Assembly: GCA_016203765.1 (NCBI GenBank)
Contig: JACQMB010000145.1
Location: 72,964 to 136,963, forward strand
Direction: 5' to 3'
Source: Deltaproteobacteria bacterium
Lineage (GTDB): Bacteria; UBA10199; SPLOWO2-01-44-7
DNA: 64,000 bases
Position numbers and translations under genes: made by a program. The stretch's first letter is position 1, and each line of letters starts with the position of its first letter. Positions 22,382-64,000 of the stretch are shown here, piece after piece. The notes below the pieces were generated by a model. It was not told the origin of the DNA. It saw only the letters and a list, made by a program, of their open reading frames with translations, and did no database searches.

Positions 22382-22411
22382 TGTAGTTTGGGAACATCGA
22401 ACCCGCCACGT

Positions 22412-22432
22412 CGAAATAAGTATCGTGTCCCC
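22412..22432. repeat. REP-like half element (cgaaataagtatcgtgtcccc)
   Basis: Matches one arm of the hairpins at 32437, 33995 and 63373. Confidence 0.6.
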
Positions 22433-32383: not shown

Positions 32384-32436
32384 AATTTCATCAATCGACT
32401 TGACCCCTTATACAAATTCGGGGGACAAAATTCGGA

Positions 32437-32484
32437 GGACACGATACTTAATTCCTCATAGGCCGAAATAAGTATCGTGTCCCC
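32437..32484. repeat. REP-like palindromic hairpin (GGACACGATACTT stem, ~21-nt loop)
   Basis: ggacacgatacttaattcctcataggccgaaataagtatcgtgtcccc. A perfect 13-bp inverted repeat. Confidence 0.8.
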
Positions 32485-32537
32485 TGATATCCACTATAGT
32501 TCGCCGCCTTGCATCCCCGCTTGCATTAAAGCACTTG

Positions 32538-33146
32538 CTACTTGCCGTTTTTTATTTTTTTGTCTCGTAAATATTTGTCAATGTTCGCAATAACTTTGTA
32601 TCCTCTGTCATAGTCGAAAATACAACTGTCCTTTTGTAAGCTGTTTCCTTTTTGGTCAATTAATTTATATTCTTTGCCAATTATCTTGAGGTCAGTGTCG
32701 TAGTACTCCGTTTTTGTCTCGTATGCAACATCGTCAGTGCAAATGCTGTTAAAAAAAATTGTCTGGCGTTCAAAAGCAAAAGTTTTTCCGTCTTTGTCAA
32801 AGTAATGAGAAAAGGTTATGTCCCAGTCCCCGCTTTCACTGTAAGGCATTTCTCTAGCAACAATAAGTTTTCCGTTGTTGCCTTTAAATAAGTTGTAAGT
32901 AGTTTCAATACTGTCTGGCCACTTTTCATTTTCTATTTGCACTAAATCATTCTTGTCAGCCAATTTTACAAAGACAATTATTTTATTTCTGTTGTTGTTG
33001 AAAAGGGTATCTACTTCTGCTTTCCGATGTTTAAGTTGCCCAATGTCTGTTTTGGAAATAAGTTGCAAAGTGTGCGTCTCAGAATTGCTAAAACTGCACA
33101 AAATCAACAGTCCGAAAAAAGTTGTCAGTATGTAAAAGTGTCTCAT
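32538..33146 (-). CDS. AT-rich small secreted hypothetical protein (possible orphan immunity or accessory gene)
   Basis: Signal peptide MRHFYILTTFFGLLILCSF. Markedly lower GC than the flanking DNA. Confidence 0.4.
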   Translation of the reverse strand: MRHFYILTTFFGLLILCSFSNSETHTLQLISKTDIGQLKHRKAEVDTLFNNNRNKIIVFVKLADKNDLVQIENEKWPDSIETTYNLFKGNNGKLIVAREMPYSESGDWDITFSHYFDKDGKTFAFERQTIFFNSICTDDVAYETKTEYYDTDLKIIGKEYKLIDQKGNSLQKDSCIFDYDRGYKVIANIDKYLRDKKIKNGK

Positions 33147-33206
33147 TTTAAAATGGCAAGTAACTGACCAGCCCCCGATATCGCGAAAGTGGCGATTCTC
33201 TTATAT

Positions 33207-33974
33207 TCAATCCGTCACCTGATAGATCAGAAGGACTATATTTTTCGGAAGAAACTCTTTTCTGAAATGGTCATAATAATGCTCACATATACCCCGCCAC
33301 CAAGGAGCATCGGCTCCCTCAGGTTGCAAAATCTTTTGATCGCTCAAGTATTTCTTAAATAAGGTTTGGAGTTTCTGAGGGGTATCCCATTGAGAGTTAT
33401 AGCTAGCTAAACTGATATGCCCACATGTGGAATAGTTTTCATCGACGAAAAGCGCAATAGCCGGTTTTTGGAGTAATGTCAGTTCTTTTTTATTCAAAAC
33501 AACTACGGGAGCAACGCCAATCACCTGACAACTGACAATATGGGCCTTTTTAACTGTGGCCAGATTTACTTTGATTCTTTCCGACTCTAATGTTGCAGTG
33601 AACGAAGTTCTTTTCTCAAGGAGATAATCGGCCCCATCACAGCAAATTTTATCCCGCTTTTCGGGAATGTAAGCAATAGAATAGATTTTCTGGAAAAGGG
33701 CCACTTCCTCGTCTGCGCCCTTTTTTATGAATCTCTTTAAAAAGGCCTCGTCGTTCAGAACAACTTTTTCAAAATTGTCACCTCTAACAACATACTGATT
33801 CCCTTTCTTAACGCAGCCACCATAACCACTGCTCTCTAAAAAGCCGGAAGTTGTTCTTCCATTCTTCATTTCCAAATCCGTTTTGATAATAAACGTTTCG
33901 GGAATATCCGCATAACACAAGGAAATCATGCCAAGCTGGGATAAAAACAATAAGAAAGCCAGTTTTTTCATCAT
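33207..33974 (-). CDS. AT-rich secreted hypothetical protein
   Basis: Signal peptide MMKKLAFLLFLSQLGMISLCYA. The ORF-track N-terminal extension runs through a REP hairpin, so the start was set at MMKK. Confidence 0.4.
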   Translation of the reverse strand: MMKKLAFLLFLSQLGMISLCYADIPETFIIKTDLEMKNGRTTSGFLESSGYGGCVKKGNQYVVRGDNFEKVVLNDEAFLKRFIKKGADEEVALFQKIYSIAYIPEKRDKICCDGADYLLEKRTSFTATLESERIKVNLATVKKAHIVSCQVIGVAPVVVLNKKELTLLQKPAIALFVDENYSTCGHISLASYNSQWDTPQKLQTLFKKYLSDQKILQPEGADAPWWRGICEHYYDHFRKEFLPKNIVLLIYQVTD

Positions 33975-33994
33975 TTGAAATCGGGGGCAATAGA

Positions 33995-34043
33995 GGGACA
34001 CGATACTTAATTCCTCATAGGCCGAAATAAATATCGTGTCCCC
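33995..34043. repeat. REP-like hairpin (same family, one mismatch)
   Basis: gggacacgatacttaattcctcataggccgaaataaatatcgtgtcccc. Confidence 0.8.
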
Positions 34044-34051
34044 TGATTTCG

Positions 34052-34097
34052 GGGGACACAATATCTATTTTTCGATGGAATTGTGTATTGTGTCCCC
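34052..34097. repeat. Variant REP-like hairpin (GGGGACACAATA stem)
   Basis: ggggacacaatatctatttttcgatggaattgtgtattgtgtcccc. 12-bp perfect inverted repeat. Confidence 0.75.
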
Positions 34098-34505
34098 GGA
34101 TTTCCTCTTTATACTGTTTTTATATTTTTTAATGGCTTGAGTAAAAGCATCGGATGAGAAGCCTGGATAATTTAACCTGTTATTTGGATGTGGGATGATT
34201 TCCCCAGGTGCCCACGGTCTAGCATCTAATAGCTGCGCAATATTTTTAATCGATAGGGAAACGTTTTTTCTGCTCTTCAATTTTTTTGTCAGTTCGAACC
34301 GCCCATCGATTCCCCTAATCCATCCACCTTTAACCAACCTGCATAGCCCGCTTTCGAATTCCTCCCGGGTGAAAATGGCATGATTAATGGCGTCCCCTGC
34401 GGCAATGATTTGCCAAAACTCAGCGGGCCCTTCCATGGCGGCAGTTCCAATGGCAACAAGTAGCCACGCATCAGACCATCGGTATCTGATTTGATCATTG
34501 TTCAT
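34065..34505 (-). CDS. Hypothetical protein, AT-rich (possible immunity or orphan module)
   Basis: 146-aa ORF in the AT-rich island downstream of RHS-1. Its 3' end overlaps the REP hairpin. Confidence 0.35.
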   Translation of the reverse strand: MNNDQIRYRWSDAWLLVAIGTAAMEGPAEFWQIIAAGDAINHAIFTREEFESGLCRLVKGGWIRGIDGRFELTKKLKSRKNVSLSIKNIAQLLDARPWAPGEIIPHPNNRLNYPGFSSDAFTQAIKKYKNSIKRKSGDTIHNSIEK

Positions 34506-34545: not shown

Positions 34546-34833
34546 TCAGAAGTCCAACTTGACCCCTTTTCTTTTTCTTATCTTAATTATTGGCAATCCC
34601 ATATAAGATTTGGGCAAAATGACTTTGCCTCCACCTTTTCTTAAGGTTACTACAACACTAGGAACTTCTCCGATTCCATATCTGTCAACAACAACATTAA
34701 CAACTTTTTTAAAACTAAATTCACTCAAAAAAGATTTTTGGATGTTCTTAAATAAAGCTTTATCTCCAAGAGAGTGACAAAGGTAATCAGTTTTTTCCTC
34801 ATCGCTCAGTTTTTTAAATTTCTCAAAGTTCAT
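34546..34833 (-). CDS. Putative immunity protein for the RHS-1 C-terminal toxin
   Basis: 95-aa ORF starting 1 nt after the RHS-1 stop. AT-rich like the toxin tip. Confidence 0.5.
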   Translation of the reverse strand: MNFEKFKKLSDEEKTDYLCHSLGDKALFKNIQKSFLSEFSFKKVVNVVVDRYGIGEVPSVVVTLRKGGGKVILPKSYMGLPIIKIRKRKGVKLDF

Positions 34834-34834: not shown

Positions 34835-37800
34835 TCAATTAACTATAAAAATTTCATCAGTTTTAATTGGCCCCTCTACTTTAAACTGTGGAATTCCCTT
34901 TGGGCCCATATTTGTTTTGCCAGCAGGTTTTACCCGAACAGATGGTTTTACTTCAATCAATTCTCCCCCCTTTTCAAAGTATTTTCTAATTTTTGGATCC
35001 TTCTGAAGGTTCTTGTTATAAATTGTTTTAATAATATCATCAGGTTTGCTTAAATCAACCTTCCTAAGATCATCAAACTTTCCTACTGTCGGCCAATTCT
35101 TCTTAGGTAGTCCTCCTTCCTTTATTATTTTCTCATATGCACCTTTAGGAATAATTTTCCCATAGGCTTTGGTAACATCACTCCCCTTATCCACCGCTTT
35201 GATAAGTTTGGCGCCCTTGTTGACAAATTTCCCACCAGTGGCCACCCAGCCGGCGAAGGGGATGGCGGCGCCGGCGGAGAGGGCGGCATTTGTATAATCG
35301 CCCCTGGCAGTGTAAATGCCGGCATTAAGTAAATCCAGAGGCTCGCCAATGCCGGGGATGAGGCCACCCACATCAAGTACAAATTGGCCAACATCTAGAA
35401 GGGTCTCAACGAGTTCGTTTTTCTTCCCCTTCTCTGTTCCAAAGGAATCAATCCAATTCAACGGGTCGTTGGTAGCATACGCATACACATTGGGTCCATC
35501 GATCATGCCTAAGGGGTCCTTGGAGGTAAATTGGCCGAGGGTGGGGGAGTAGTAGCGGTTTTTGTAATAGTAGAGTCCTGTTTCAGCGTCGAAGTATTGG
35601 CCGGTGTAGGTGAGGGGGTTGGAGATGGGGGCGATGGGGGCCAGGTCGGAGGCCTTGGCGGCGGCGGTGCGGAGTTTTGGTTGCGGCTCCGGTCCCCGCG
35701 CGGTCAGCGCGCCGTATTCGCCATACTCGTAGCGCTGGGCCATCCGGCCGTGTTCATCGCTCAAGCCGGTGATGGAGCCGAGGCGGTCGCGGTGATAATA
35801 AAAAAGCCGCCCGCCCGACTTTAACGCCACCGGTTCATCGAGGGATTTGCCGTGGATGTAGACGTTGCCGAGCTGGCCGTTTTCGTATTCTTCGATGAGG
35901 TTCCAGTTGTCATAGACAAACTCGATGGAACGGATGTAGGGACCCGCGTCGGCGGCCTCATTCGAAACGGCTGTCTCGTTCGCTGCCACCGGCCCCATCC
36001 TTACGTTCTCAAAGAAGACCTGTTTTTTGACTCTCCGGTTGTGGGCGTCGTAGGTGTATTTGGCAACGAGCTTGCCGGTGGCCTTGTCCTTGACCTGGGT
36101 TAAGCGATTGAAGGGGTCATATTCGAAAAGGTATTGAGTGTTGAGGGAGGTAAGATTACCGCGTTCGTCGTAGGCTAGGGGATCGCCGTTGAAGGAGGCG
36201 TATTGAAACCCCGCGCCGGAGGCGATGTTTGTGACTTCTTCTTTCTTCTTGCCGTCTTTCTCAATAATGCTTCGCCACTGGCCCTCGGCGGCGTAGGTGT
36301 ATTCGCGTTTGGTTGCGGCCAGCGACCAGGCCTGATCCCATGAATTTTTGTTCCCTCTGGGACCTTCGGTCTTCCCTACTTTTTCCAGTTGATCCAAATT
36401 ATTGTAGCCAAAGACCTCCCAGGTCTTTTGTTTGACGTCTTCTTTTAAAATCACCCTCCCTTTGAGATCGTAGGCGTAGGCCAGTTTGGAGAGAATATTC
36501 TTTTCTTTTTGGTAGTTTTCCTCCACCAGTTGCATCAGCGAATCGTAATTCAAGTTTTTGGTAATGCCGTTGCCCAGTGTTTCTTTTTGGGTAAATCCCA
36601 ACAGGGCGTATTGATACTGGCTGACACTTTGGCCGTTCACCTGGATATTTTCCAGCCAGCCCGCGGGATCAAAACTCTGCGTTACTTCTTCGCCCGAAGG
36701 ATAGAAGAGGGCGGTCTTTTGGCCCCGAATGTCGAAACGTTTTTTTAAGGTGCGGCCGGCTAAAGTTTCTTGAACAAGATTGCCAAGATTGTCATAGCCA
36801 AATTGGGAGGTGATATCATCGGTGGGATCGGCGGGGTCGTTCAAATCAGTGCCGGCCGTCAGCCGGCCCAAGGGATCGTAGCCGTAAGTTTGCTTGTAGG
36901 CGCCGCTGGCCCTTTCAATCAAACGATTGAGGGCGTCATAGGTATAGTCATACTTCGTTTGGCCCGCGGTCAGCGAGGTAAGGTTGCCCGCCGCGTCGTA
37001 GGCGTATTCCCTGCGCACGCCGTCGGCTCCCACTTCGGTTTTTTTGCGCCCCTGGCTGTCATAAGTGTATTGGACTTTATTGCCCTGACCATCGAGGAAG
37101 GCCTCCAAGACTTCATTATTCCACAAAAGTTTTCGCTCCCTTGTCCCTTGCGCCTCTTTGAGCAAGCGTCCGATCCCGTCATAATAATAGAGCGTCTCCT
37201 GGTTTAAGGGATCGATCTCTTTAATGAGCTGGCCCAGGCTGTTATAGATTTTTTGGTAACTCGCCCCCTTGGCATCGGTTTGGGAGACAATCTGGCCCAG
37301 GGCGTCATATTGATAGCGCTCCGATAGGGAATGTAACCCCTTGGCGATCTTTCGCTCCGTGATCAGCCCTCTGGAATCGTAGCTTAATTGAATCGCGTTG
37401 CCCGAGGCGTCTTCAATGGCGGCGACTTCGCCGAAGGAATTATAGCCAAACTTTTGCGCCAGCCCCAGCGGGTCACGGATTTCCTTCAGCAGGGGACCCG
37501 CGTAGACAAATTCCTTTTTCACCCAATCTTGCGTCCCTTCCGCCGAGCCGACCAGCCTCTCTTCCTCGGAGACTTTGCGCCCCAGGGCGTCATAGGCAAA
37601 CCGGACTTCCTTTAAGATGGCGGCCTTGGCGTCTTTAAACTGATAACCGGCGATCTCCCCCAGCCCGGTGTAGTCAATCTCCAAATGACTGCCCAACGGA
37701 TCAATAAACTTGGCAACGCGCGAGAGCGAATCCCTTTGGTATTCCTTCCGGTTTCCCTTGGCATCGCTCTCGGCAATCAAAAAACCGTCCGCGTCGTATT

Positions 37801-40800
37801 CGAGCTTTCTCTGCGTCTCGCCTCCGGCCTTCTCCTCCGTCACCCGGTTGAAGGGGTCGTAGACGAATTCCCTCGCGGTCCCGTCGATCCCTTTAATCCG
37901 CGTCAGGTTTTCATTGAGATCGTAGGCGTATTCCTCCGCCACCCACTTCTCTCTGTTGACCTGGAGTTCCTTCTTAATGAGATTGTCTAAAACGTCGTAG
38001 TTGTAGCGCTCTCTTAATTGATAACCGAGGTCGGCCGCGTTTAAGGCCCCCGCCACGTCGCGAGTAACTTCCATCAAGTTATCATTGGCATCGTAGCGAT
38101 AATAGGTCTTGTTCTTTAACGCGTCCTCCTTTTGCGCCACCAGATTGTCGGCGCTGACCCAGTAGCGGGTCTGGTTCCCCATAGGGTCCGTCACCGCCTG
38201 AATGTTGCCCCGCAAATCGTAGGCCAAACGCAGGGCGCGGCTCGCCTCCCCGGCGGTCTCCGTCAGACTGACCAAATCGGCCCCCTGATAACCGTAGCGC
38301 CTTGCCTTTTGACCCTCGCTCTCCGCTATCAACTGGCCGTGTTCGTTATATTCAAACACCGTAACCAAATCCCCACGCCTGATCTCCTTGAGCAGGCCCG
38401 AAGGGGTGTAGGCGTATTCCTCGCGGCGCTTTTCGGCGCCCGAAATCATTTCCCGAAAGAGGGGCTTGTGCAATTCCTTGTCATAGCCATAACGCACCTG
38501 AATCGTTTTGCCGTCTTCCCCCTTGACCCGCTGTTCCACCAGGTCCCGCCCCTCATAGCTAAACAGCTCTTCCTTCCCGCTGGGATAAATATGTTTAGTA
38601 ACAAGCCCAACATTATTATATTCAAACTTTTCAGGCGAATTCTTCTCCGCCTGATGGCTCAAGCGCAAGCCTTGGGCGTTGTGCTCATAGGTATGTTGAA
38701 CCCCTTTTCTGTCCCAAACCGTCGTCCGGCTTAACGCCGTGTTGACCGTCGGCTTCGAAGCCTTCAACGCCTGGTACTCCACGCGCATCTGAAGGCTCTC
38801 TTTCCCGCCGAACAACTGCGCCGTGATCTTGTCCTTCTCCAATCCCTCGGCCCCGTAGACATTCTTTAAATAGACCTGGCCTTTAGGGTCCATGATCATG
38901 TTAAGATTGTGATTGAGCCTCGGCTCCAGCAGGCCGCCGCTATAGGCATAGCGGGTTGTTTTGCCTTGAGGAAATTCATCCGAAACCGGCGAGCGGACCG
39001 ACACAAGGTCTTTTTGAACGTCATGGGTATAAACCACTTCTCTTCCAAAAGAATCCGCCACCGAGGCCAGCAGACCCTCATCACTATAGCGGTACTCCAC
39101 CGCCCGCCCCAGCGTGTCCACCACGCGCACCAAAACAATCGCGCTCCCGCTCAGACCGTATTCAAATCGAAGCGCGTTTCCATGGGGGTCTTCAATCTTC
39201 GTCAGCCGCCCCTCGCTGTTGAAATAATGCCGACTCGCGTCGGCTTGTTTCAAAACATATCCCCCCTCCGTCTTGCCCAGCTCCGTGAAAAAACCGCGCG
39301 GCGAATTAAAACCCTGCCTCTTTTCGTTAAAACGATACCAGTAGCGCAAACCTTCCGCGCTCTGATGGACCACATCTTTGTTGGAAGGATTTAAGATCAG
39401 CTTCTCGTCGTAATTGTGCGTCCAGTTGTAGCCCAGCGGCCCCATCCGCTCCCATTGATTCCGGTAATAACGCTTCAACTCATAGTCGAGGCCCCGGCCT
39501 CTCAATTTTAAGTCGGCCGCCTCCAACGCGTACTCCCCGCTGTACAAAATAACAGGGTCCAAAGGCGAATCGCTGTCGGCTTGAGGTGATTCATCAGTGG
39601 CCCCGGTCTGATCCTCCTTCGAGGCTACTTTTACTTCTTCATACCCGCAGGCCTCTTCGTCCCCCTCCGCGCAGGCCTGGGATTTTTCCTCCCCTTCCTG
39701 CTCCGGCGTTTCGTAACCCTCCTCCGGAGCCTTCCCCAAGGCCACGATCTGCTCGTCCATTTGGACTTTGAAATCGCTCAAGCCGCCCATGATCTCATCC
39801 AATTTCTCCTTGGCCTTCGACGGGTCCATTTTTTCAGAGAGGCCTTCCGCCATTTTAGCCAGCTCTTCCAGCTTGGCCTTCTGTTCGGGGGTCAATCCCT
39901 TCGCCCCATGCCCCCCGAATATCCCGCGCCCAGCAAAATCCCCGCCGATCATCATAAACGACCGAGGCTTCTTTTCCAATTGCCAGATCAAATGCTTGAT
40001 TAAATTGATTCCCGACTTGACCTCTTCGATGTCGATCCAAATGCAACACTTCACAGACCTCCTAAAGTGCTCGTGCGCCGCTACCGCCCATATCCCCGCC
40101 ATCGCGGGAGAGGGTATCTCGATGTCCGGAATGCCTAGCGTCGGCACTCCCTTCAGCTTGTGAAACTGATGTCCCAGATAATCCCCCGCCGACAAATTAA
40201 AAGGATTGGGCAGCTTTGACCCCTCCAGCATATCCTTCAAATTCGCCTCAATCGCCGCCAAATCGATATTCTTAACCGAATCCATCTTGTCCTTGATCGA
40301 CTCCATCGTATCCGCCGCCCCTTGGGTCAGATCATTCAGCTTCTGTTCAAAATTCGCCCCCAGCATGTCAAACATCTCTTTATCAATAAAATCCTTCATC
40401 CCATCCTTCGTCGCCAGGCCCATTTTTTCGGATAACTGGTTTTGAAGCGGCCCCACAAAACCGGCCGGATCGTCCGTCATGTTTCCGCCAAAAGTCCCCC
40501 TCGTCCATTCATGAAACGTCTTGTCAACCATTTCCCCCAAGCCATTTGTTGCCTGGTCGGTCACCGAGCTGATCATCTGCTGAACCTTCGCCGCCCCGTC
40601 CCCGGCAATATCCGCCCCCTTTAACACGTTATTGCGCATGAACTGATCCACCATCCCGGGAAATTGGATCTGCATCTGATTCTTGAATTCCTGCTTTAAA
40701 AATTCCCGGTATTCGCCGCTCCCCTCCCAGGGTTGGGACACTCGCATCGGCATGTTAACATCTCCGGGAGTATGCTCGCCTAGCGGCTTGGTTGGAACGT

Positions 40801-41080
40801 AACGGTCCCCATATTTCGCCACCCACTTCTCCCTGGCCTGCACCGCCCAGGACCTCATCTGGTCCGTCACCGCCGGCTGACTTAAAAATTTGTTCGCCTC
40901 GCCGCGGGCATACTTTCTCAGTTTCCCCATATCCATTGCCGTCTGATAATTAAACGAACGCAGGGATTGAATGCTTTCATTGATATCCTGGCTTTGGATG
41001 GATGAGACGAACGGCGCGGAGAGAAAGATGACGGCGGTGAGAATGACAACCCTCAATGACATTGTTGCTTTATTCCACAT
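34835..41080 (-). CDS. RHS/YD-repeat polymorphic toxin 1 (signal peptide, N-terminal domain, YD-repeat shell, RHS core, variable C-terminal toxin)
   Basis: Many YD repeats (YDALGR, YDANDNL, YDPFNR and others). RHS core end motif PLTYTGQYFDAETGLYYYKNRYYSPTLGQFTSKDPLGMIDGPNVYAY. AT-rich ~210-aa C-terminal tip. Start set at MWNK with a GGAGG RBS. The ORF-track upstream 37 aa is read-through. Confidence 0.9.
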   Translation of the reverse strand: MWNKATMSLRVVILTAVIFLSAPFVSSIQSQDINESIQSLRSFNYQTAMDMGKLRKYARGEANKFLSQPAVTDQMRSWAVQAREKWVAKYGDRYVPTKPLGEHTPGDVNMPMRVSQPWEGSGEYREFLKQEFKNQMQIQFPGMVDQFMRNNVLKGADIAGDGAAKVQQMISSVTDQATNGLGEMVDKTFHEWTRGTFGGNMTDDPAGFVGPLQNQLSEKMGLATKDGMKDFIDKEMFDMLGANFEQKLNDLTQGAADTMESIKDKMDSVKNIDLAAIEANLKDMLEGSKLPNPFNLSAGDYLGHQFHKLKGVPTLGIPDIEIPSPAMAGIWAVAAHEHFRRSVKCCIWIDIEEVKSGINLIKHLIWQLEKKPRSFMMIGGDFAGRGIFGGHGAKGLTPEQKAKLEELAKMAEGLSEKMDPSKAKEKLDEIMGGLSDFKVQMDEQIVALGKAPEEGYETPEQEGEEKSQACAEGDEEACGYEEVKVASKEDQTGATDESPQADSDSPLDPVILYSGEYALEAADLKLRGRGLDYELKRYYRNQWERMGPLGYNWTHNYDEKLILNPSNKDVVHQSAEGLRYWYRFNEKRQGFNSPRGFFTELGKTEGGYVLKQADASRHYFNSEGRLTKIEDPHGNALRFEYGLSGSAIVLVRVVDTLGRAVEYRYSDEGLLASVADSFGREVVYTHDVQKDLVSVRSPVSDEFPQGKTTRYAYSGGLLEPRLNHNLNMIMDPKGQVYLKNVYGAEGLEKDKITAQLFGGKESLQMRVEYQALKASKPTVNTALSRTTVWDRKGVQHTYEHNAQGLRLSHQAEKNSPEKFEYNNVGLVTKHIYPSGKEELFSYEGRDLVEQRVKGEDGKTIQVRYGYDKELHKPLFREMISGAEKRREEYAYTPSGLLKEIRRGDLVTVFEYNEHGQLIAESEGQKARRYGYQGADLVSLTETAGEASRALRLAYDLRGNIQAVTDPMGNQTRYWVSADNLVAQKEDALKNKTYYRYDANDNLMEVTRDVAGALNAADLGYQLRERYNYDVLDNLIKKELQVNREKWVAEEYAYDLNENLTRIKGIDGTAREFVYDPFNRVTEEKAGGETQRKLEYDADGFLIAESDAKGNRKEYQRDSLSRVAKFIDPLGSHLEIDYTGLGEIAGYQFKDAKAAILKEVRFAYDALGRKVSEEERLVGSAEGTQDWVKKEFVYAGPLLKEIRDPLGLAQKFGYNSFGEVAAIEDASGNAIQLSYDSRGLITERKIAKGLHSLSERYQYDALGQIVSQTDAKGASYQKIYNSLGQLIKEIDPLNQETLYYYDGIGRLLKEAQGTRERKLLWNNEVLEAFLDGQGNKVQYTYDSQGRKKTEVGADGVRREYAYDAAGNLTSLTAGQTKYDYTYDALNRLIERASGAYKQTYGYDPLGRLTAGTDLNDPADPTDDITSQFGYDNLGNLVQETLAGRTLKKRFDIRGQKTALFYPSGEEVTQSFDPAGWLENIQVNGQSVSQYQYALLGFTQKETLGNGITKNLNYDSLMQLVEENYQKEKNILSKLAYAYDLKGRVILKEDVKQKTWEVFGYNNLDQLEKVGKTEGPRGNKNSWDQAWSLAATKREYTYAAEGQWRSIIEKDGKKKEEVTNIASGAGFQYASFNGDPLAYDERGNLTSLNTQYLFEYDPFNRLTQVKDKATGKLVAKYTYDAHNRRVKKQVFFENVRMGPVAANETAVSNEAADAGPYIRSIEFVYDNWNLIEEYENGQLGNVYIHGKSLDEPVALKSGGRLFYYHRDRLGSITGLSDEHGRMAQRYEYGEYGALTARGPEPQPKLRTAAAKASDLAPIAPISNPLTYTGQYFDAETGLYYYKNRYYSPTLGQFTSKDPLGMIDGPNVYAYATNDPLNWIDSFGTEKGKKNELVETLLDVGQFVLDVGGLIPGIGEPLDLLNAGIYTARGDYTNAALSAGAAIPFAGWVATGGKFVNKGAKLIKAVDKGSDVTKAYGKIIPKGAYEKIIKEGGLPKKNWPTVGKFDDLRKVDLSKPDDIIKTIYNKNLQKDPKIRKYFEKGGELIEVKPSVRVKPAGKTNMGPKGIPQFKVEGPIKTDEIFIVN

Positions 41081-41411
41081 ATTGACCTCCTGATCAAGTT
41101 CCAAGGCCGTTATTTTTATTCTTGGCGGAACTTGATGAAAAGTTGCTTTATTGCACGAAAGTAAAGCAAAATTCGTGCCAGAAAATAGCAATATATTTTT
41201 TATTATAAATCATATAGATAGAAAATGCGTTTGACGTTGAATCGTGGTAATGTGTCTTTGGTTGGGACACAGTGTGCTAAAAGTAGGACACTTTTTGCAT
41301 GAGGCGCCCTCTTGGGCAGGTTATTATAAGTAATTGACAGTTTTAGGCTTTTTTTAATAATCTGAGGCGCACGGCGGTTGGCATTTGGTTTGCAGTTGCA
41401 AGAGAAGGTAC

Positions 41412-56109: not shown

Positions 56110-56662
56110 CAACAGACAAGGACAAGCCGCCGTGGGTTATGCCCTGGCCCTGGCCGTCGTGGCGGTCGGCATGGGTGTGGTTTTAAACAGCCCCGAGCTG
56201 AGGCAGGGGATTGCCGAATTTTACACCAACGCCGCCACCCGCGTTATTCATGGCGGAAAATTCGGCGAATCCGATTTGACCGCCGCCAAGGATGAAACAT
56301 GGGGATCAGCGCCTTCGGATGAAACGGCCGGAACGCCGACTGAAAGCGGAACTCCCTCCGGCGGGGACGGCACGGGTGCCGGAGATGGTTCCTCAGGCGG
56401 TTCTTCGGATTCCGGGCAGACCACCCAGACAGGGGGCGGCGGCTTGGGGACCGGGGGGGTGAATACCCCGGGAACGGTTCCGGGCGAGACGACTGCTTCC
56501 ACGGGTCCCTCGACGCAACCCACCGCGCCAACGGGCTCCGTCCCGCCGGAACCCGGCGCGCCGAAAGGTCCCTTTGCCGATCAAAATATGTCTTCCGCCC
56601 CGGTTGAAAATCCGCAGGAGCCGGCGCAATGCGAAGCGGCGGCGGATAGCGCCGGAATATGA
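56096..56662 (+). CDS. Pilin-like protein with a non-canonical Flp-type N-terminus and a Gly/Ser/Thr-rich tail
   Basis: NNRQGQAAVGYALALAVVAVG resembles the Flp G/xxxxEY motif with E replaced by G. The C-terminal ~120 aa is G/S/T/P-rich. Stop overlaps the RHS-2 start. Confidence 0.45.
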   Translation: MRKINNRQGQAAVGYALALAVVAVGMGVVLNSPELRQGIAEFYTNAATRVIHGGKFGESDLTAAKDETWGSAPSDETAGTPTESGTPSGGDGTGAGDGSSGGSSDSGQTTQTGGGGLGTGGVNTPGTVPGETTASTGPSTQPTAPTGSVPPEPGAPKGPFADQNMSSAPVENPQEPAQCEAAADSAGI

Positions 56663-59600
56663 TGAAAAAACAAGTGAGCGCAAAACTTGTTTCATCGGGG
56701 GCCGTGATTTTAGGCTTGGCATTTTTTGTTTTTGTTTCCGGTCCGTTCGTCTCATCCATCCAAAGCCAGGATATCGATCAAAGCATTCAATCCCTGCGGT
56801 CGTTTGACTACCAGAAGGCGACCGACCTGGGAAAACTGGAGGACTACGCCAAGAAAGAGGCGCGGAAGTTCATGGGCCAGGCGGAGGTCAAGGAGAAGAT
56901 GGAGAGTTGGGTGAATGAGGCCAAGGAGGCTTGGACGGACGCGCACGGCAAGATGTATCAATTGCCGGCTCGGGGGGCCTCTGTTCCCTGGGAGTCGAGG
57001 CCGGAATACCGCGACTATTTGAAAAAAGAATTGACCAACCAGATGCAGGTGAAATTTCCGGGCATGATGGATCAGTTCATGAAGAACAACGTCTTGCAAG
57101 GGGCGCAGGTCGCGGCGGAGGAGGCGGCGAAGGTGGAGAAGATGATCGGGGAGGTGACCGACCAGACCCTGAAGAACGTGGAGGGGATCGTGGGGGGAGC
57201 GATCGACCATTGGGGAGAGACCATACAAAGCGGCGGGGGGATGTTGACGGACAAGTTATTGGAGCCCGCCGCCTTTTTGGGCGAGATGCAGGAGAAGCTG
57301 GCCGGCAAGATGGGGGAGGCGACCAAGCTGGGGATGAAGGAATTTATCGACAAAGAGATGATCGGTCTGCTGGGGGAGAATTTTGAGCAGAAGCTGACCG
57401 ATCTGACCCAAGGGGCGGCGGAGACGTTGGAGGGGATCAAAGACAAGCTGGCGGACATCAAGCACATCGATTTAACCTCGATCGAGCAAAACCTGCAGGG
57501 GATATTGGACGCCTCCGGTCTTCCGAATCCTTTTAATTTATCGGCCGGCGATTATTTGGGACATCAGTTTCACAAGCTGAAGGGACTGCCCCCGGCGACC
57601 CTTCCGGACATCGAGATTCCCTCCCCGGCGATGGCGGGGATTTGGGCCTCTTCGGCGGCGAAGCATTTTGCCAAGGCCTTCGTGAAGTTTGATGAGCTCC
57701 GTGCCGGGATCAACCTGATCAAGCATTTGATTTGGCAGATGGAGAAGAAGCCTCGGTCGTTCATGATGTTTGGGGGTGATTTTGCGGGGCGCGGTATCTT
57801 TGGCGCGCACGGGGCGGCGGGGCTGACGCCGGAGCAGAAGGCCAAGCTGGAGGCGCTGATCGCGGAGGCGGAGGGCCTGCCGGAAGACATGGATCCGACG
57901 AAGATGAAGGAGAAGCTGGAGGGATTCAGGGATATTTTGGGCGAGTTCAAGGTGGAGATGGACAAGCAGATTTTGGCGATGGGGAAGCCCAACGAGGGTT
58001 ACGATCAACCCGATTTGGAGGGTGAGGAGAAGGAAAAAGATTGCGAGAAGGACCCGGAGCGGGAGGAGTGTCAATACGAGGAGGTAAAAGTAGCCAGCAA
58101 GGAGGATCAGACCGGGGCGACGGAGGAATCCCCTGAGGCCGACAGCGATTCGCCTTTGGACCCTGTTATTTTGTACAGCGGGGAGTACGCGTTAAAAGCG
58201 ACTGATTTGAAATTAAGGGGCCGGGGCCTCGATTTTGAACTGACCCGCCACTACCGCAACCAATGGGAGCGGATGGGGCCGCTGGGATACAACTGGACGC
58301 ACAACTACGATGAGAAACTGATTCTCGATTCCCAAAAGCGGGACATCGTGCATCAATCGCCGGAAGGCCAGCGTTATTGGTATCGCTGGGATGAGAAAAA
58401 ACAGCGCTTTGATTCTCCGCGCGGCTTTTTCACGAAGCTGACCCCAACCGAAGGGGGATTTGTTCTAAAGCAATCCGAAGGGCTTAACTATTATTTCAAC
58501 GGCGAAGGGCGGATGACCAGGATTGAAGACGCTCATCAGAACGCCCTGCGATTTGAATACGGCCTCGCGGGCGAGACAATGGTTTTGGTGCGCGTGATAG
58601 ACACGCTGGGGCGCGCGGTGGAGTACCGTTACAATGATGAGGGTTTGATTGCCTCGGTGGTGGATCCCTTTGGAAGGGAAGTGGTTTATACCCATGACGC
58701 TCAAAAAGACCTTGTGTCTGTCCGCTCGCCGGTGAGCGATCAATATCCGCAGGGGAAGACAACCCGCTACGCTTACAGCGGCGGGCTGTTGGAGCCGAGG
58801 CTCAATCACAATCTCAACATGATCATGGATCCGAAGGGGCAGATTTATTTAAAAAACGTCTACGGGGCCGAGGGATTGGAAAAGGACAAGATCACGGCGC
58901 AGTTGTTCGGGGGAAAAGAGAGCCTTCAGATGCGGGTGGAATACGAGGCGTTAAAGGCCAGCAAGCCGACGGTCAACACGGCGTTAAGCCGGACGACGGT
59001 CTGGGACCGCAAGGGGGTTCAACATAGCTATGAGCACAACGCCTGGGGCCTGCGTTTGAGTGAGCGGGCGGGAGAAAATCCGGCCGAGCAGTTTGAATAT
59101 AACCAGGACGGGCTTTTAACCAAACACGTTTATCCCGGCGGCAAGGAGGAGATTTTTACCTACGAAGGGAATCATCTCAAAGAATATCAACTGAAAGGCG
59201 AGGATGGAAAATCCCTGCTGGGCCGTTATGGCTATGACAAGCAATGGAATAAGGTTGCCTTTGAAGAAAGGATCTCCGGCACCGAGGTTCGCCGGAAAGA
59301 ATACGCGTACAATGACGCGGGGCTTTTGAGCGAGGCGCGTGAGGGGGGTGTCACCACCCGGTATGAGTACGATCCCTACGGCCGGATTGTTAAAAAGATC
59401 GAAGGGGAAAAGACGCGGACCTACGCCTATGACAAGGCCAACCCCATTGTTATTACGGACAGCACGGAGGGGGGAAGCCGCAGTATCACCATCGGTTACG
59501 ATCTTTACGGCAACATTCAGGCGGTGACCGATCCTGCGGGGAACCGGACCCGCTATTGGCTGAATGCCAACAACCTGGTGGTGCAGAAGGAAGATGCCTT

Positions 59601-62600
59601 GGGCCACAAGACCCATTACGCTTACGATGCCAATGACAATTTGGCCGAGGTGACCCGCGACGTGGCCGGAGCGCTGAACATCTCCGATCTCGGTTATCAA
59701 TTAAGAGAGCGCTACAACTACGATGTTTTGGATAACTTGGTCAAAAAAGAGTCGCAGGTCAACCGGGAGAAGTGGGTGGCGGAGGAGTATGCCTACGATC
59801 TCAATGAAAACCTGACGCGGATTAAGGGGATCGACGGGACCGCGAGGGAATTCGTCTACGACCCCTTCAACCGCGTGACGGAGGAGAAGGCCGGAGGCGA
59901 GACGCAGAGAAAGCTCGAATACGACGCGGACGGTTTTTTGATTGCCGAGAGCGACGCCAAGGGAAACCGGAAGGAATATCAAAGGGATTCGCTTTCACGG
60001 ATTGCCAAGTTTATCGATCCGTTGGGGAGTCAGCTGGCCCTGAATTACACCGGCCTGGGCGAGATTGCCGGGTATCAGTTTAAAGACGCCAAGGCCGCCA
60101 TTTTAAAGGAGGTCCGGTTTGCCTACGACGCCCTGGGGCGCAAAGTCTCCGAGGAAGAGAGGCTGGTCGGCTCGGCGGAAGGGACGCGGGATTGGGTGAA
60201 AAAGGAGTTTGTTTACGCGGGGCCCTTCTTAAAGGAAGTTAGAGATTCGCTGGGGCTGGTGCAGAAGTTTGGCTACAATTCCTTCGGCGAGGTCGCCGCC
60301 ATTGAAGATGCCTCCGGCAATGCCATTCAGCTTAGCTATGATTCGCGGGGTCTGATGACTCAAAGACAAATCACCAAAGCAACGCGTTCCTTAACCGAGC
60401 GCTATCAATACGATGCCTTGGGCCAGCTCATCAGCCAAACCGATGCCAAGGGGGCGAGTTTAAAAAGGGTTTATAACAGCTTGGGCCAGTTGATTAAAGA
60501 GATCGACCCTCTCAATCAGGAGACCCTCTATTATTATGACGGGATCGGAAGACTCCTAAAGGAAGTGCAGGGCGAAAGAGAGCGAAAACTTCTGTGGAAT
60601 GCCGACCAAATGCTGGAGGCTTTTATCGACGGCCAGGGCAATAAGGTCCAATACACTTACGACAACCAGGGGCGCAAAAAGGCCGAAGTGGGAACCGACG
60701 GCGTTCGGAGGGAATACGGCTACGACGCGGCGGGCAACCTGGCCTCTCTGACCGCCGGCGCCGCAAAGTATGACTACACCTATGACGCCCTCAATCGTTT
60801 GATCGCGAGGGCCAGCGGTGATTACAAACAAACTTACGGCTATGATCCGTTGGGGAGGCTGGTCGCCAGCACGGATCTCAATGACCCTGCCGATCCGGCA
60901 GACGACACCACCGCCCGGTTTGAATACGACCCTCTTGGCAATCTGGTCAAGGAAACTCAGGGTGAGCGGGTGTTAAGCAAGCATTTCAACATCCGGGGCC
61001 AAAAAACCGCCCTCTTCTACCCTTCGGGCGAAGAAGTAACGCAAAGTTTTGATCCCGCGGGCTGGCTGGAAAATATCCAGGTCAACGGCCAAACGATCAG
61101 CCAATATCAATACGCCCTGTTGGGTTTTACCCAAAAAGAAACCTTGGGCAACGGCATTACCAAAAACTTGAATTATGACAACTTAATGCGGCTGGTGGAG
61201 GAGAACTACCAAAAAGAAAAGAATATTCTCTCCAAACTGGCTTATGCCTACGATCTCAAAGGGAGAGTGATTTTAAAAGAGGATGTAAAGCAAAAGACCT
61301 GGGAAGTCTTTGGCTACAATAATTTGGATCAACTGGAAAAAGTAGGGAAGACCGAAGGTCCCAGAGGGAACAAAAATTCATGGGATCAGGCCTGGGCGCT
61401 GGCCGCAACCAAACGCGAATACACCTACGCCGCCGAGGGTCAGTGGCGAAGCATTATTGAGAAAGACGGAAAGAAGAAAGAAGAAGTCACAAACATCGCC
61501 TCCGGCGCGGGGTTTCAATACGCCTCCTTCAACGGCGAGTCCCTGGCCTATGATGAGCGCGGCAATCTCGCCTCCCTTAACAATAAACTTTCCTTTGAAT
61601 ACGATCCCTTCAACCGCTTAACCCAAGTCAAAGACAAGGCCACCAATAAGCTCGTCGCCAAATACACCTACGACGCCCACAATCGCAGAGTCAAAAAACA
61701 GATTTTCTTTGAAAACGTAAGGATGGGGCCGTTCGCGGCGAATGAGGCGGCGGTTTCGGATGAGGCCGCTGACGCGGGCCCCTACATCCGTTCCATCGAG
61801 TTCGTCTATGACAACTGGAACCTCATCGAAGAATACGAAAACGGCCAGCTCGGCAACGTCTACATCCACGGCAAATCGCTCGATGAACCCGTCGCGTTAA
61901 AGAGCAACGGCAAGATCTTCTATTACCACAGAGACCGCTTGGGATCGGTGACGGGCTTGAGCGATGAGCACGGCCGGATGGCCCAGCGCTATGAGTACAC
62001 AGAGTACGGCGCGCTGACCGCGCGGGGGCCCGAACCGCAACCAAAACTCCGCTACGCCGCCGCTAAGGCCTCCGATCTCGCCCCTATCGCCCCCATCGAC
62101 AACCCCCTCACCTACACCGGCCAATATTTCGACGCCGAAACAGGGCTCTACTATTATAAGAATCGCTACTACGCCCCCCAACTCGGCCAATTCACCTCGA
62201 AGGATCCTTTGGGCATGGTGGATGGGCCGAATGTGTATGCGTATGTAAATAGCGACCCGTTAAACTGGGTGGATCCGACGGGGACGTTTATTGGGTATCA
62301 TAGTAGTGGTGAAAAGGTAGGCACTCTAGCTAATGCTAGAGCAGAGATTGATCAGATTGTATGGGCATATGTTGAACAGCGTAGAATTGAAGAAAATAAA
62401 TGTCGAACGGGCGATTATAACGTAAAAGAAAATAAGAACATAAACTATAGTGAGTTGTTAGAAATTCTTACGACTCATTTTGATACAAGCAATAATCGCT
62501 TTTTTTACACATCAAAGGGTGGTTTTATGGATGTGAAGCATGTAGTTGCGGCAACTCAGAAAGCCTATGAATTGCCATGGTACATACCAGACTCTGCAGT

Positions 62601-63009
62601 ATTGGTTGGAGGTATGGAAGTTGAAAGAATTCAATCTAGAGCTGGTGATAAGAGTGCGTGGGGGGCTGAAGATTTAGTGTCAAATAAAGCAGGTGTGAGG
62701 TTTGAAAATAAATTGCCTGATAATTTGGCTGAGTTAGGAGCAACCTTTGAAAATTTTTTCGACAAAAAATATGGTGGACAGGGCGCAACCCCATCACAAT
62801 CTGATATAAGGAAAATGAATCAAGTCCTCAACTTTGGGTACAGACCATTATTATCTCCAGATGACAAAAGAATACTTACAACTGACGATGGAATAAAATA
62901 TCTATCTAGTGGGGACACATTGATTGATATAATCAATTTAAATGAATATAGGGAAGGTCAAAAAAACCCACAACCTATGCATCCTCCTTTTGAATCGTTT
63001 AATTTATAA
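56659..63009 (+). CDS. RHS/YD-repeat polymorphic toxin 2 (paralog of RHS-1 with a different C-terminal toxin domain)
   Basis: Same architecture as RHS-1, with a near-identical YD shell and core. After DPLGMVDGPNVYAYVNSDPLNWVD it diverges into an AT-rich ~240-aa tip. Confidence 0.9.
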   Translation: MMKKQVSAKLVSSGAVILGLAFFVFVSGPFVSSIQSQDIDQSIQSLRSFDYQKATDLGKLEDYAKKEARKFMGQAEVKEKMESWVNEAKEAWTDAHGKMYQLPARGASVPWESRPEYRDYLKKELTNQMQVKFPGMMDQFMKNNVLQGAQVAAEEAAKVEKMIGEVTDQTLKNVEGIVGGAIDHWGETIQSGGGMLTDKLLEPAAFLGEMQEKLAGKMGEATKLGMKEFIDKEMIGLLGENFEQKLTDLTQGAAETLEGIKDKLADIKHIDLTSIEQNLQGILDASGLPNPFNLSAGDYLGHQFHKLKGLPPATLPDIEIPSPAMAGIWASSAAKHFAKAFVKFDELRAGINLIKHLIWQMEKKPRSFMMFGGDFAGRGIFGAHGAAGLTPEQKAKLEALIAEAEGLPEDMDPTKMKEKLEGFRDILGEFKVEMDKQILAMGKPNEGYDQPDLEGEEKEKDCEKDPEREECQYEEVKVASKEDQTGATEESPEADSDSPLDPVILYSGEYALKATDLKLRGRGLDFELTRHYRNQWERMGPLGYNWTHNYDEKLILDSQKRDIVHQSPEGQRYWYRWDEKKQRFDSPRGFFTKLTPTEGGFVLKQSEGLNYYFNGEGRMTRIEDAHQNALRFEYGLAGETMVLVRVIDTLGRAVEYRYNDEGLIASVVDPFGREVVYTHDAQKDLVSVRSPVSDQYPQGKTTRYAYSGGLLEPRLNHNLNMIMDPKGQIYLKNVYGAEGLEKDKITAQLFGGKESLQMRVEYEALKASKPTVNTALSRTTVWDRKGVQHSYEHNAWGLRLSERAGENPAEQFEYNQDGLLTKHVYPGGKEEIFTYEGNHLKEYQLKGEDGKSLLGRYGYDKQWNKVAFEERISGTEVRRKEYAYNDAGLLSEAREGGVTTRYEYDPYGRIVKKIEGEKTRTYAYDKANPIVITDSTEGGSRSITIGYDLYGNIQAVTDPAGNRTRYWLNANNLVVQKEDALGHKTHYAYDANDNLAEVTRDVAGALNISDLGYQLRERYNYDVLDNLVKKESQVNREKWVAEEYAYDLNENLTRIKGIDGTAREFVYDPFNRVTEEKAGGETQRKLEYDADGFLIAESDAKGNRKEYQRDSLSRIAKFIDPLGSQLALNYTGLGEIAGYQFKDAKAAILKEVRFAYDALGRKVSEEERLVGSAEGTRDWVKKEFVYAGPFLKEVRDSLGLVQKFGYNSFGEVAAIEDASGNAIQLSYDSRGLMTQRQITKATRSLTERYQYDALGQLISQTDAKGASLKRVYNSLGQLIKEIDPLNQETLYYYDGIGRLLKEVQGERERKLLWNADQMLEAFIDGQGNKVQYTYDNQGRKKAEVGTDGVRREYGYDAAGNLASLTAGAAKYDYTYDALNRLIARASGDYKQTYGYDPLGRLVASTDLNDPADPADDTTARFEYDPLGNLVKETQGERVLSKHFNIRGQKTALFYPSGEEVTQSFDPAGWLENIQVNGQTISQYQYALLGFTQKETLGNGITKNLNYDNLMRLVEENYQKEKNILSKLAYAYDLKGRVILKEDVKQKTWEVFGYNNLDQLEKVGKTEGPRGNKNSWDQAWALAATKREYTYAAEGQWRSIIEKDGKKKEEVTNIASGAGFQYASFNGESLAYDERGNLASLNNKLSFEYDPFNRLTQVKDKATNKLVAKYTYDAHNRRVKKQIFFENVRMGPFAANEAAVSDEAADAGPYIRSIEFVYDNWNLIEEYENGQLGNVYIHGKSLDEPVALKSNGKIFYYHRDRLGSVTGLSDEHGRMAQRYEYTEYGALTARGPEPQPKLRYAAAKASDLAPIAPIDNPLTYTGQYFDAETGLYYYKNRYYAPQLGQFTSKDPLGMVDGPNVYAYVNSDPLNWVDPTGTFIGYHSSGEKVGTLANARAEIDQIVWAYVEQRRIEENKCRTGDYNVKENKNINYSELLEILTTHFDTSNNRFFYTSKGGFMDVKHVVAATQKAYELPWYIPDSAVLVGGMEVERIQSRAGDKSAWGAEDLVSNKAGVRFENKLPDNLAELGATFENFFDKKYGGQGATPSQSDIRKMNQVLNFGYRPLLSPDDKRILTTDDGIKYLSSGDTLIDIINLNEYREGQKNPQPMHPPFESFNL

Positions 63010-63014: not shown

Positions 63015-63365
63015 ATGGCTAGATGGCTAAATTTTTACATCATTTTGGTTCTAATCTGTATTTCCACGTGCACTCAGAACAAGACTGATCATATTACCCA
63101 AAAAGATCCTTTTGAGATTTGGCGTTCAAAAAATTTAGGAGATCGGGGCAAAGTTGCTTATAAGGTGAGTCAGGAAATTTTAAAAAGAAAGCCGAGTAAA
63201 GATGAGATGCTTCAGTTATTAGGCGACCCCGACTTTAATGAGGGGGAATGTTTTTTGTATAAATATACGGCTTACTATAATTCTATGTATAATGACTGGC
63301 CCGAAACTCTAAGTGTTTGCTATAACCAGAATGGACAACTTCAAAAAGTTTTTCGAATGGATTAA
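63015..63365 (+). CDS. Putative immunity protein for the RHS-2 C-terminal toxin
   Basis: 116-aa AT-rich ORF 6 nt after the RHS-2 stop, with an N-terminal hydrophobic or lipobox-like segment. Confidence 0.5.
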   Translation: MARWLNFYIILVLICISTCTQNKTDHITQKDPFEIWRSKNLGDRGKVAYKVSQEILKRKPSKDEMLQLLGDPDFNEGECFLYKYTAYYNSMYNDWPETLSVCYNQNGQLQKVFRMD

Positions 63366-63372: not shown

Positions 63373-63386
63373 GGGGACACGATACT
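63373..63386. repeat. REP-like half element (ggggacacgatact)
   Basis: Same family as 32437, 33995 and 22412. Lies between the immunity gene and the transposase. Confidence 0.6.
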
Positions 63387-63480
63387 AGAGTGCAGTTTGA
63401 CCGCCCCTTTCCTTTTCGAAATCGGGCCCAGTAAAGGGGTCAAGTCTTGACATTTGCAAGGAGGGTGTTAGGAGGGGGAT

Positions 63481-64000
63481 ATGGCGAGGCCGTTACGGAT
63501 TCAATATAAGGGCGCTTGGTATCATGTGATGAACCGGGGAGGGGGTCGTCAGCGAATTTTTTGTGCGGGCAAGGATTATGAGATTTTCGTGAAACTTTTG
63601 GAGGAGTCGGTTGGACTTTGGGGCATTCGGATTCATGCCTTCAGTTTGTTGCCGAATCATTATCATTTATTGGTGGAGACCCCTCGGGGGAATTTATCGC
63701 GAGCCATGCGGCATATCGATGGAGTTTATACGCAACGGTTTAACAGGAATCACAAACGAGATGGGCATTTGTTTCGAGGGCGATATAGATCGATATTAGT
63801 GGAAGAGGAAGGCTATTTGGTGGAGTTGCTCCGCTACATTCATTTGAATCCGGTACGGGCGGGTTTAGTGAGGAAGCCGCAGGAGCATTGTTGGACGAGC
63901 CATCATGTTTACTTGGGAGGGGCCAAGGATCGCGGGTGGTTAACGACGGAGCGATTGCTTTGGTATTTTGCGAAGAGGTTATCGAAAGCCCGCAGGAAGT
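63481..64000 (+). mobile_element. REP-associated tyrosine transposase (RAYT, IS200/IS605 TnpA-like Y1 HUH), 3' end beyond the window
   Basis: WYHVMNRGGGRQRIF, HUH motif LPNHYHLL, and the catalytic-Tyr region RYIHLNPV. The frame is open to the window edge. Confidence 0.75.

Follow-up and report, generated by a model that had tools for sequence, protein, structure and literature searches.

A probable TIRtron nested in a second palindromic repeat beside an Rhs toxin gene of a Deltaproteobacteria bacterium

Background

A 64,000-nucleotide stretch of a Deltaproteobacteria bacterium genome (contig JACQMB010000145.1, positions 72,964 to 136,963, [GenBank:GCA_016203765.1]; hereafter the window) carries at its right end the first part of a gene for a putative HUH/Y1 transposase, together with two kinds of short repeats that we call A and B. 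A preliminary description of this DNA assigned the gene to the repetitive extragenic palindrome (REP)-associated tyrosine transposases (RAYTs) and took the hairpin repeat in front of it, A, for the REP that the enzyme mobilises. Comparison with related loci points to another arrangement: the locus is probably a 'TIRtron', that is, a 1,034-bp unit bounded by 25-bp terminal inverted repeats (TIRs) of type B, encoding one protein with an HUH/Y1 domain and a DnaA-domain-IV-like helix-turn-helix (HTH) domain, and lying inside a copy of A.

RAYT-like genes that are flanked by long TIRs and lack REPs were named TIRYT, and the corresponding units TIRtron, by Di Nocera et al. (2013, PMC3733652). Some TIRYT repeats lie at a near-constant distance from the transposase coding sequence and some over the 3' end of the gene. 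Many have the head GGGGWSAS, and some form modest dispersed families of singles, dimers and clusters (PMC3733652). In the classification of Quentin et al. (2018, PMC6006769), TnpA_Y1 subclass 2.1 has the HUH motif NH[YF]H, the tyrosine motif Y[IV]HLNP, C-terminal Bac_DnaA_C, HTH_23 or HTH_28 tails, and no REP nearby. It corresponds to group 1 of Bertels et al. (2017, PMC5581495), the largest and most widespread RAYT group and one of the two most similar to insertion sequences (IS) in distribution; RAYT-class genes are typically low-copy and housekeeping-like (PMC5581495).

Results

The transposase gene and its protein

The open reading frame (ORF) opened by the ATG at 63481 on the forward strand is free of stops up to position 64000, so that 173 codons lie within the window. 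Its continuation was read from L001, a metagenome contig of 2,947 bp (loci from other sequences are numbered in the same way). L001 was retrieved through a 116-aa ORF at 63015-63365, upstream of the transposase gene, which was found on two metagenome contigs. Because L001 is identical to the window across the full 2,153-nt overlap, it is a valid extension past 64000; window positions equal L001 positions plus 61,847. The complete gene has 326 codons (L001 1634-2614). The NCBI entry for the same protein, MBI4125688.1, lies on a 145-kb contig of a Deltaproteobacteria MAG and is named 'transposase' (PGAP), and relatives are named 'RayT' by other sources. The gene and its ends comprise the following features.

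63434..63458 (L001 1587-1611), + strand: left TIR (B), AAGGGGTCAAGTCTTGACATTTGCA, complementary at 25/25 positions to L001 2596-2620 and ending 22 nt before the ATG
63470..63475, + strand: Shine-Dalgarno-like AGGAGG, 5 nt upstream of the ATG, read from the sequence
63481..64000, + strand: first 173 of the 326 codons of the TIRYT (group 1 RAYT) protein, as assigned from its sequence; the gene ends at about 64461 in the L001 extension
63658..63666, + strand: HUH motif His60-Tyr61-His62 within NHYH, in columns invariant among 30 homologues and aligned with the HUH motif of E. coli TnpA_REP (PDB 4ER8)
63835..63837, + strand: predicted catalytic Tyr119 within YIHLNP, invariant in the 30 homologues and aligned with YIYINP of 4ER8
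About 64443-64467 (L001 2596-2620): right TIR (B), which contains the stop codon and the codons of the final residues (..ANVKT)

The RAYT hallmarks that the preliminary description had recognised in this ORF are all present: the translation contains YHVMNRG, NHYHLL and RYIHLNP. The product of the window ORF matches Pfam PF01797 (Y1_Tnp) with 44.8 bits (E 1.6e-11; cutoff 23) and the full-length protein with 42.9 bits. Thus the protein exceeds the Pfam gathering score and has the single tyrosine and the HUH motif of the HUH Y1 superfamily. In the NCBIfam equivalog model NF047646 ('REP-associated tyrosine transposase', REP_Tyr_transpos) it scores 76.6 bits, slightly below the cutoff of 80. In the PDB, the N-terminal domain matches E. 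coli TnpA_REP (4ER8) and no other entry; the match is weak (E 0.16) and has the HUH and tyrosine motifs in register. With a profile of the 30 homologues, the C-terminal third matches structures of DnaA domain IV (1j1v, E 2.2e-5; also 8btg and 2hcb). A homologue search returned more than 7,400 relatives, and many relatives carry PF08299 (Bac_DnaA_C) or the HTH family PF13384; a Pfam scan of the 326-aa protein alone did not call the C-terminal HTH domain. Judged by its sequence, the ORF at 63481 encodes an intact RAYT-class HUH/Y1 enzyme of the TIRYT (group 1 RAYT) type, an already described class, the assignment to subclass 2.1/group 1 being made on motifs and domain architecture and not on placement in the published trees.

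Terminal inverted repeats and the limits of the unit

The perfect 25-bp inverted repeat B brackets the gene more tightly than the two A halves described below. Both TIRs have the head GGGGTCAAG; the left TIR includes the palindrome GTCAAGTCTTGAC and, as a 25-mer, is unique in the window. The closest relative of the transposase, at 89% amino acid identity, is encoded in locus L110, between purH and purD. The DNA of L110 and L001 is about 90% identical exactly from AGGGGTCAAG to CTTGACCCCTT and unrelated beyond both points, and the L110 locus contains no A element and no downstream small ORF. As the similarity is confined between the B ends, the unit measures 1,034 bp, from window position 63434 to about 64467. 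The two copies differ with a synonymous divergence (dS) of 0.40 and a ratio of non-synonymous to synonymous divergence (dN/dS) of 0.13. None of the 50 TIR positions has changed between them, and the adjacent leader is heavily substituted. The low dN/dS, and TIRs unchanged despite such a dS, show that the protein and its ends are under selection.

The same architecture recurs in the wider family. We compared 69 homologues that were full-length and had enough flanking sequence; 80 loci at 37-53% identity came from a metagenome scan, and closer relatives were added singly. Of these 69, 51 are flanked on both sides by an exact inverted repeat of 12 nt or more (median 21 nt), and in 41 of the 51 the repeat has a GG(G/T)TCA-type head. 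Where such a repeat is present, its left arm starts a median distance of 52 nt before the ATG, and in 40 cases the right arm extends over the stop codon, which explains the family-wide C-terminal ..(K/Q)-T-stop. Bracketing TIRs are also found in distant plasmid homologues. In locus L121 (8392-10990), two different TIRtrons stand in tandem with a 169-aa ORF between them. Their TIR pairs are GGGGTCAAGTATTTACTCTT.. and GGGGTCAAGTCTTGCGTTTTGCATTT..; since each unit has its own matched pair, the arms appear to co-evolve within a unit.

Besides the two TIRs, the window contains dispersed B-type sequences.

32398..32409, + strand: solo B-type end ACTTGACCCCTT, 25 nt from an A hairpin
34557..34568, + strand: solo B-type end ACTTGACCCCTT inside a small palindrome, GGGTCAGAAGTCCAACTTGACCC
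63397..63420, + strand: degenerate B-type right-end remnant TTTGACCGCCCCTTTCCTTTTCGAA, outside the unit, resembling the B right end plus downstream sequence of L030, CTTGACCCCTTTCCTTTCCTTTCGAAT

Counting the left TIR, ACTTGACCCCTT occurs in the window in three exact copies and in one further copy with one mismatch, compared with 0.24 expected at that stringency. No significant hairpin fold was found for the 63397-63420 remnant with the left TIR, nor for B arms and A half-sites alone. At 3744-3763, between convergent genes, lies CTGACCCCCGACGGGGTCAC, a mini-palindrome of two GGGGTCA heads that may be a B-type dimer or a terminator.

Could the gene be a domesticated, immobile host gene, with the inverted repeats serving as operator or regulatory sites for its HTH domain? 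The adjacency of A would then be incidental, both having come to lie in AT-rich intergenic DNA acquired with toxin cassettes. Such a role would agree with the low-copy, housekeeping-like character of RAYT genes in general (PMC5581495), with the strong purifying selection (dN/dS 0.13), with the position of the left repeat in the 5' leader, where it includes TTGACA, with the one copy in the window, and with the rarity of plasmid homologues (12 records). However, L110 lies in the unrelated purH-purD context and its similarity stops exactly at the repeat ends, and L121 has two different units in tandem. The dispersed solo B ends and the truncated remnants of locus L026 (see below) are footprints of movement, group 1 is among the most IS-like RAYT groups in distribution (PMC5581495), and no sigma-70-type promoter is predicted at the left TIR. 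We therefore regard domestication as quite improbable.

The A repeats of the window and the split copy

The sequence GGGGACACGATACT is found at 63373-63386, 94 nt before the ATG; the head of the A element to which it belongs is GGGGACAC. Allowing up to two mismatches, GGGGACACGATACT has seven matches in the window (22419 (-), 32435 (+), 32471 (-), 33994 (+), 34030 (-), 34084 (-) and 63373 (+)), where 0.33 are expected, and none of 100 shuffled sequences reached seven. They correspond to the following elements.

22410..22432, - strand: solo family-A arm with some of the loop attached, GGGGACACGATACTTATTTCG, in the gap between the convergent genes for a radical-SAM protein and an M48 peptidase
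32435..32484: intact family-A hairpin with a loop of the same subfamily as the split copy
33994..34043: intact family-A hairpin
34052..34097: variant family-A hairpin, GGGGACACAATA...TATTGTGTCCCC
63373..63386 (L001 1526-1539), + strand: left half of the split family-A repeat, GGGGACACGATACT
About 64759-64786 (L001 2912-2939): right half of the split family-A repeat, the reverse complement of GGGGACACGATACT inside CCTATGAGGAATTAAGTATCGTGTCCCC

True hairpins are those at 32435-32484, 33994-34043 and 34052-34097 (z = -5.4 and -5.2 in folding as single-stranded DNA), and the matches at 22419 and 63373 are single arms. The preliminary description had located a half-REP about 95 nt before the ORF and copies near 22412, 32437, 33995 and 34052, coordinates that are right to within a few bases. 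It had also proposed, as a test, to look for a second inverted element downstream of the gene; this element exists, and is CCTATGAGGAATTAAGTATCGTGTCCCC at L001 2912-2939.

The two A halves around the gene are in inverted orientation, with 94% complementarity over 17 nt. Aligned with the intact local copies, the left half agrees up to ...GATACT and the right half from TTTC(A/G)GCCTATGAGG... (GCCTATGAGGAATTAAGTATCGTGTCC) onward, so that together the halves are only about 2 bases short of one complete A element. In the simplest reading of this alignment, they represent one local element whose arm-loop junction has been interrupted by about 1.36 kb of DNA. From left to right, this segment comprises a 46-nt stretch that includes the B-like remnant, then the TIRtron, then some 280 nt that include a small membrane ORF (98 aa, probably about 85 aa). 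A composite element with A as its functional outer end would show the same geometry, an origin that we consider less likely. The proposal that the system is active or recently active is plausible in view of the intact gene, the dN/dS of 0.13, the unchanged TIRs and the cleanly split A copy.

The A hairpin family in other genomes

A scan of one genome per species, with both arms required to be exact, yielded 27 A loci (L003-L029). Because of this requirement the scan missed the source genome itself, and the A counts are therefore lower bounds. The loci come from metagenome-assembled genomes (MAGs) labelled Acidobacteria, Elusimicrobia, Omnitrophota, SAR324, Thermodesulfobacteriota, Cytophagales, and Alpha-, Gamma- and 'Delta'-proteobacteria, a taxonomic spread that MAG binning errors could inflate. 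The arms are identical over 14-19 nt across at least seven phylum-level lineages, and half of the loci reach 19 nt (..TAATT). The loops and the outer foot of 5-8 nt are genome-specific and yet complementary: foot complementarity is 4.8/8 within a locus versus 3.1/8 between loci. Copies of one genome have common loops (L009, L014 and L020). In five loci, an A element is nested in or abuts another A element near the arm-loop junction (L017 2355-2450, L028 2826-2903, L007 2055-2116, L025 1241-1314 and L005 at about 1890-1967), and the transposase-bearing segment splits the window copy at the same place.

No gene recurs as a neighbour of the 27 loci, and the only transposase homologues within about 4 kb of them are two N-terminal remnants in L026. 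Here (4990-6760) there are two copies of a segment of some 230 nt that carries a truncated TIRYT N-terminus preceded by AATCGGGGACGTGTTCC; an A hairpin and an Rhs/YD fragment lie within 2 kb, along with GGGGTCAGACCCC palindromes and a GGGGACAGAGTTAAATTCTGTCCCC hairpin (6100-6135). A search with the 48-aa TIRYT remnant of L026 for a clade with GGGGAC-type TIRs gave no candidates. A near-identical A copy with the same loop and foot is present in L012 (5019-5062, Omnitrophota) and L027 (7158-7201, Cytophagales). The neighbouring ORF ends are 57% identical over 51 aa, which suggests that the hairpin was transferred together with flanking DNA or that the contigs were wrongly binned. Two A-bearing Deltaproteobacteria loci, L007 and L024, were considered as possible parts of the source MAG and rejected, as their protein accessions differ and place them in another MAG.

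Rfam has no family for either repeat, either in the window at the gathering threshold or in six hairpin loci at E up to 1; these scans returned only tRNAs, 6S RNA and chance microRNA matches on palindromes. The only full-text literature match to the hairpin sequence was an unrelated primer. No match to the 19-mer GGGGACACGATACTTAATT was found in the IMG/VR viral contigs; plasmids gave only two weak partial matches, including a GGGGACAGTATACTTAAT variant from Thiodictyon. This variant half-site, with the same aattcc foot, occurs at L114 3005-3027 (Ca. Thiodictyon syntrophicum plasmid pTs485) and at L021 5176-5195, which indicates that the A family has diverged relatives out of reach of an exact-match scan. 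Judged by the features of those elements, hairpin A was rejected as an integron attC site, an intrinsic terminator, a dif/Xer site or a CRISPR repeat: GTTRRRY/RYYYAAC boxes, a T-run and an array are all absent, and no neighbouring gene is conserved.

Which repeat belongs to the enzyme

The alternative put forward in the preliminary description, in a fuller form, is that the A hairpins with head GGGGACAC are cognate REPs, that the A-flanked segment is a REPtron-like master, and that the protein mobilises A in trans and reshapes the Rhs regions. Several observations agree with it besides the inverted A halves. First, the A head fits the TIRYT consensus GGGGWSAS exactly and has GGGGnCAnG in common with the B head. 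Second, among distant plasmid TIRYTs with heads such as GGGGTCAG and GGGTCAG, one on a P. aeruginosa plasmid has 32-bp TIRs with the head GGGGACAG. Third, L026 joins TIRYT remnants, GGGGAC-type repeats and an A hairpin. Finally, internal deletions in the composite could have given rise to the intact 51-nt hairpins. However, L110, at 89% identity, has identical B TIRs and no A, and its similarity to the window ends at B. No A core (at most one mismatch) is found in 87 homologue loci totalling 393 kb. Conversely, the 27 A loci elsewhere lack a common neighbour and, the L026 remnants apart, a TIRYT within about 4 kb, and the different loops of these hairpins show that they do not derive from the window composite. 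The claim that A is the enzyme's cognate, mobilised REP is thus not supported, given the B TIRs and these comparisons. It also loses support because the NF047646 score is below cutoff and because the protein fits TIRYT/subclass 2.1, for which no REPs are reported (PMC6006769). On balance a cognate relation to A is unlikely.

The A repeats would then be neighbours or targets of the unit and at most secondary substrates, through their GGGGWSAS-type head. Since this head, together with the heads of plasmid TIRYTs, fits the TIRYT consensus, the A hairpins are plausibly TIR dimers of some TIRYT lineage. A relationship in trans with the window enzyme is conceivable from the sequence of these heads.

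The Rhs toxin surroundings

Two Rhs/YD toxin genes lie in the window, at 34835-41191 (-) and 56659-63009 (+). The low-GC stretches (0.42-0.46) directly 3' of these genes contain every exact B 12-mer and all but one of the five A sites, a clustering that would also suit an enzyme acting on A. The small ORFs in the same places (63015-63365; 31658-34505) match no Pfam or NCBIfam family, are likely immunity or orphan cassettes, and have the A and B repeats between them. The gene at 25708-31452 encodes an alpha-2-macroglobulin (1,914 aa) and no Rhs toxin; it is paired with a gene for penicillin-binding protein 1C (23388-31452 for the pair, -). This is a classical pairing that is not related to toxin loci. 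The view that the hairpin is scattered around a toxin locus thus stands insofar as the repeat recurs significantly and clusters 3' of both Rhs genes. It does not extend to the gene at 25708-31452, and that TIRYT or A repeats shape the toxin locus is a hypothesis.

As in the window, a TIRYT homologue follows closely on an Rhs/YD-repeat gene in two metagenome loci that are unrelated to each other, L093 (94-2775) and L049 (76-1056). This recurrent association is suggestive; the numbers are small, and intergenic, horizontally acquired DNA is also concentrated in such regions. Unannotated small ORFs are present directly 3' of the TIRYT gene at L001 2595-2891 (window about 64442-64738) and at L111 3104-3373. 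Both look like two-to-three-helix membrane proteins, the one in L111 with weak sub-threshold holin-like Pfam matches, and they are possibly orphan immunity genes.

Discussion

Several points weigh against reading the locus as a TIRtron with B ends inside an A copy. Between the A halves, the TIRtron is preceded by 46 nt and followed by about 280 nt of other DNA, and so the TIRtron by itself does not account for the split of A. Against the TIRYT consensus GGGGWSAS, the B head GGGGTCAA agrees at only 7/8 positions and the A head at 8/8, although GGGGTCAG, the head found in relatives, also reaches 8/8. Inverted A halves flanking the gene are what a cognate relation would also give. A single copy of the unit is visible in 64 kb, and a comparison of two insertion sites revealed no target-site signature. 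Finally, we know of no biochemical work on any TIRYT.

By analogy with IS608 TnpA and E. coli TnpA_REP, on which catalysis, the DNA bound and mobility are all modelled here, the protein would most likely recognise the TIR ends, and their solo or dimer copies, through its HTH domain and/or a folded strand. The DnaA-like HTH would probably read the GTCAAGNCTTGAC palindrome in duplex DNA or in the folded strand. The HUH histidines would hold the metal, and Tyr119 would cut one strand next to the GGGG head and become joined to it through a 5'-phosphotyrosyl link. Resealing of the strand could then move or maintain the unit and seed short TIR-derived repeats.

A bolder idea concerns the A palindrome GGGGACACGATACT(TAATT), which may be an undescribed, horizontally spreading miniature element that TIRYTs mobilise in trans via its GGGGWSAS head, with the arm-loop junction as preferred insertion site. 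The nested A copies and the transposase cassette, both at this junction, fit the idea, which we nevertheless hold to be rather doubtful. If it were true, the locus would represent an enzyme captured inside its own substrate, and TIRYT activity would be linked to the turnover of Rhs toxin and immunity genes.

The locus adds one TIRtron to an already described class, nested in a second palindromic repeat; the spread and self-nesting of hairpin A are the more unusual thread. It corrects a plausible yet over-simple annotation, as a hairpin adjoining a gene named 'transposase' or 'RayT' is not thereby established as its substrate. It also defines one TIRtron anatomically, with exact ends, selection on these ends and a stop codon embedded in the right repeat, which could guide TIRYT biochemistry. 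A palindrome with an invariant stem in many phyla would be a handle on HUH enzymes that spread miniature repeats between distant bacteria, and might likewise reveal whether cassettes downstream of Rhs toxins are exchanged with the help of such repeats.

Comparison with known systems

The TnpA proteins of IS200/IS605 elements (IS608, ISDra2) belong to the same Pfam Y1_Tnp fold family, and cleavage and ligation of single-stranded DNA at structured ends would be expected in both cases. The window protein, however, has Y---NP instead of Y---Q and 326 aa instead of about 150; no tnpB is nearby, and the ends are true inverted repeats, not same-strand subterminal hairpins. IS200/IS605 identity was rejected on the tyrosine motif, the protein length and the architecture of the ends.

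With canonical RAYTs and REPtrons (YafM 4ER8, Pseudomonas REPINs) the locus shares the HUH/Y1 core, the Y---NP motif and flanking inverted palindromes that are also dispersed in intergenic regions. In contrast to them, the window protein is about twice as long and has an extra HTH domain, its NF047646 score is below cutoff and its match to 4ER8 is weak (see above), and the repeats have no GTAG foot. The A halves flank the gene in inverted orientation and A is dispersed in the window, as in a REPtron; however, the halves make up one split copy outside the conserved unit, A is absent from the 87 homologue loci, and comparison does not support a cognate relation.

The likeness is closer to subclass 2.1(.2)/group 1, with NHYH, YIHLNP, a long protein, an HTH-like tail, a wide and patchy taxonomy and no canonical REP adjoining. 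A difference is the 'W' motif, which is FR in the window protein, whereas the listed forms of subclass 2.1(.2) are W[EQ] and FQ. The TIRYT/TIRtron resembles the locus in having a Y1 gene between long TIRs that are not of the GTAG-REP type, one TIR upstream and one over the 3' end, and extra TIR copies. What sets the window unit apart from it is its B head, which agrees with the consensus at 7/8 positions, and the nesting in a second family of GGGGWSAS-headed palindromes, A, whose arms of 14-19 nt are identical in MAGs of many phyla.

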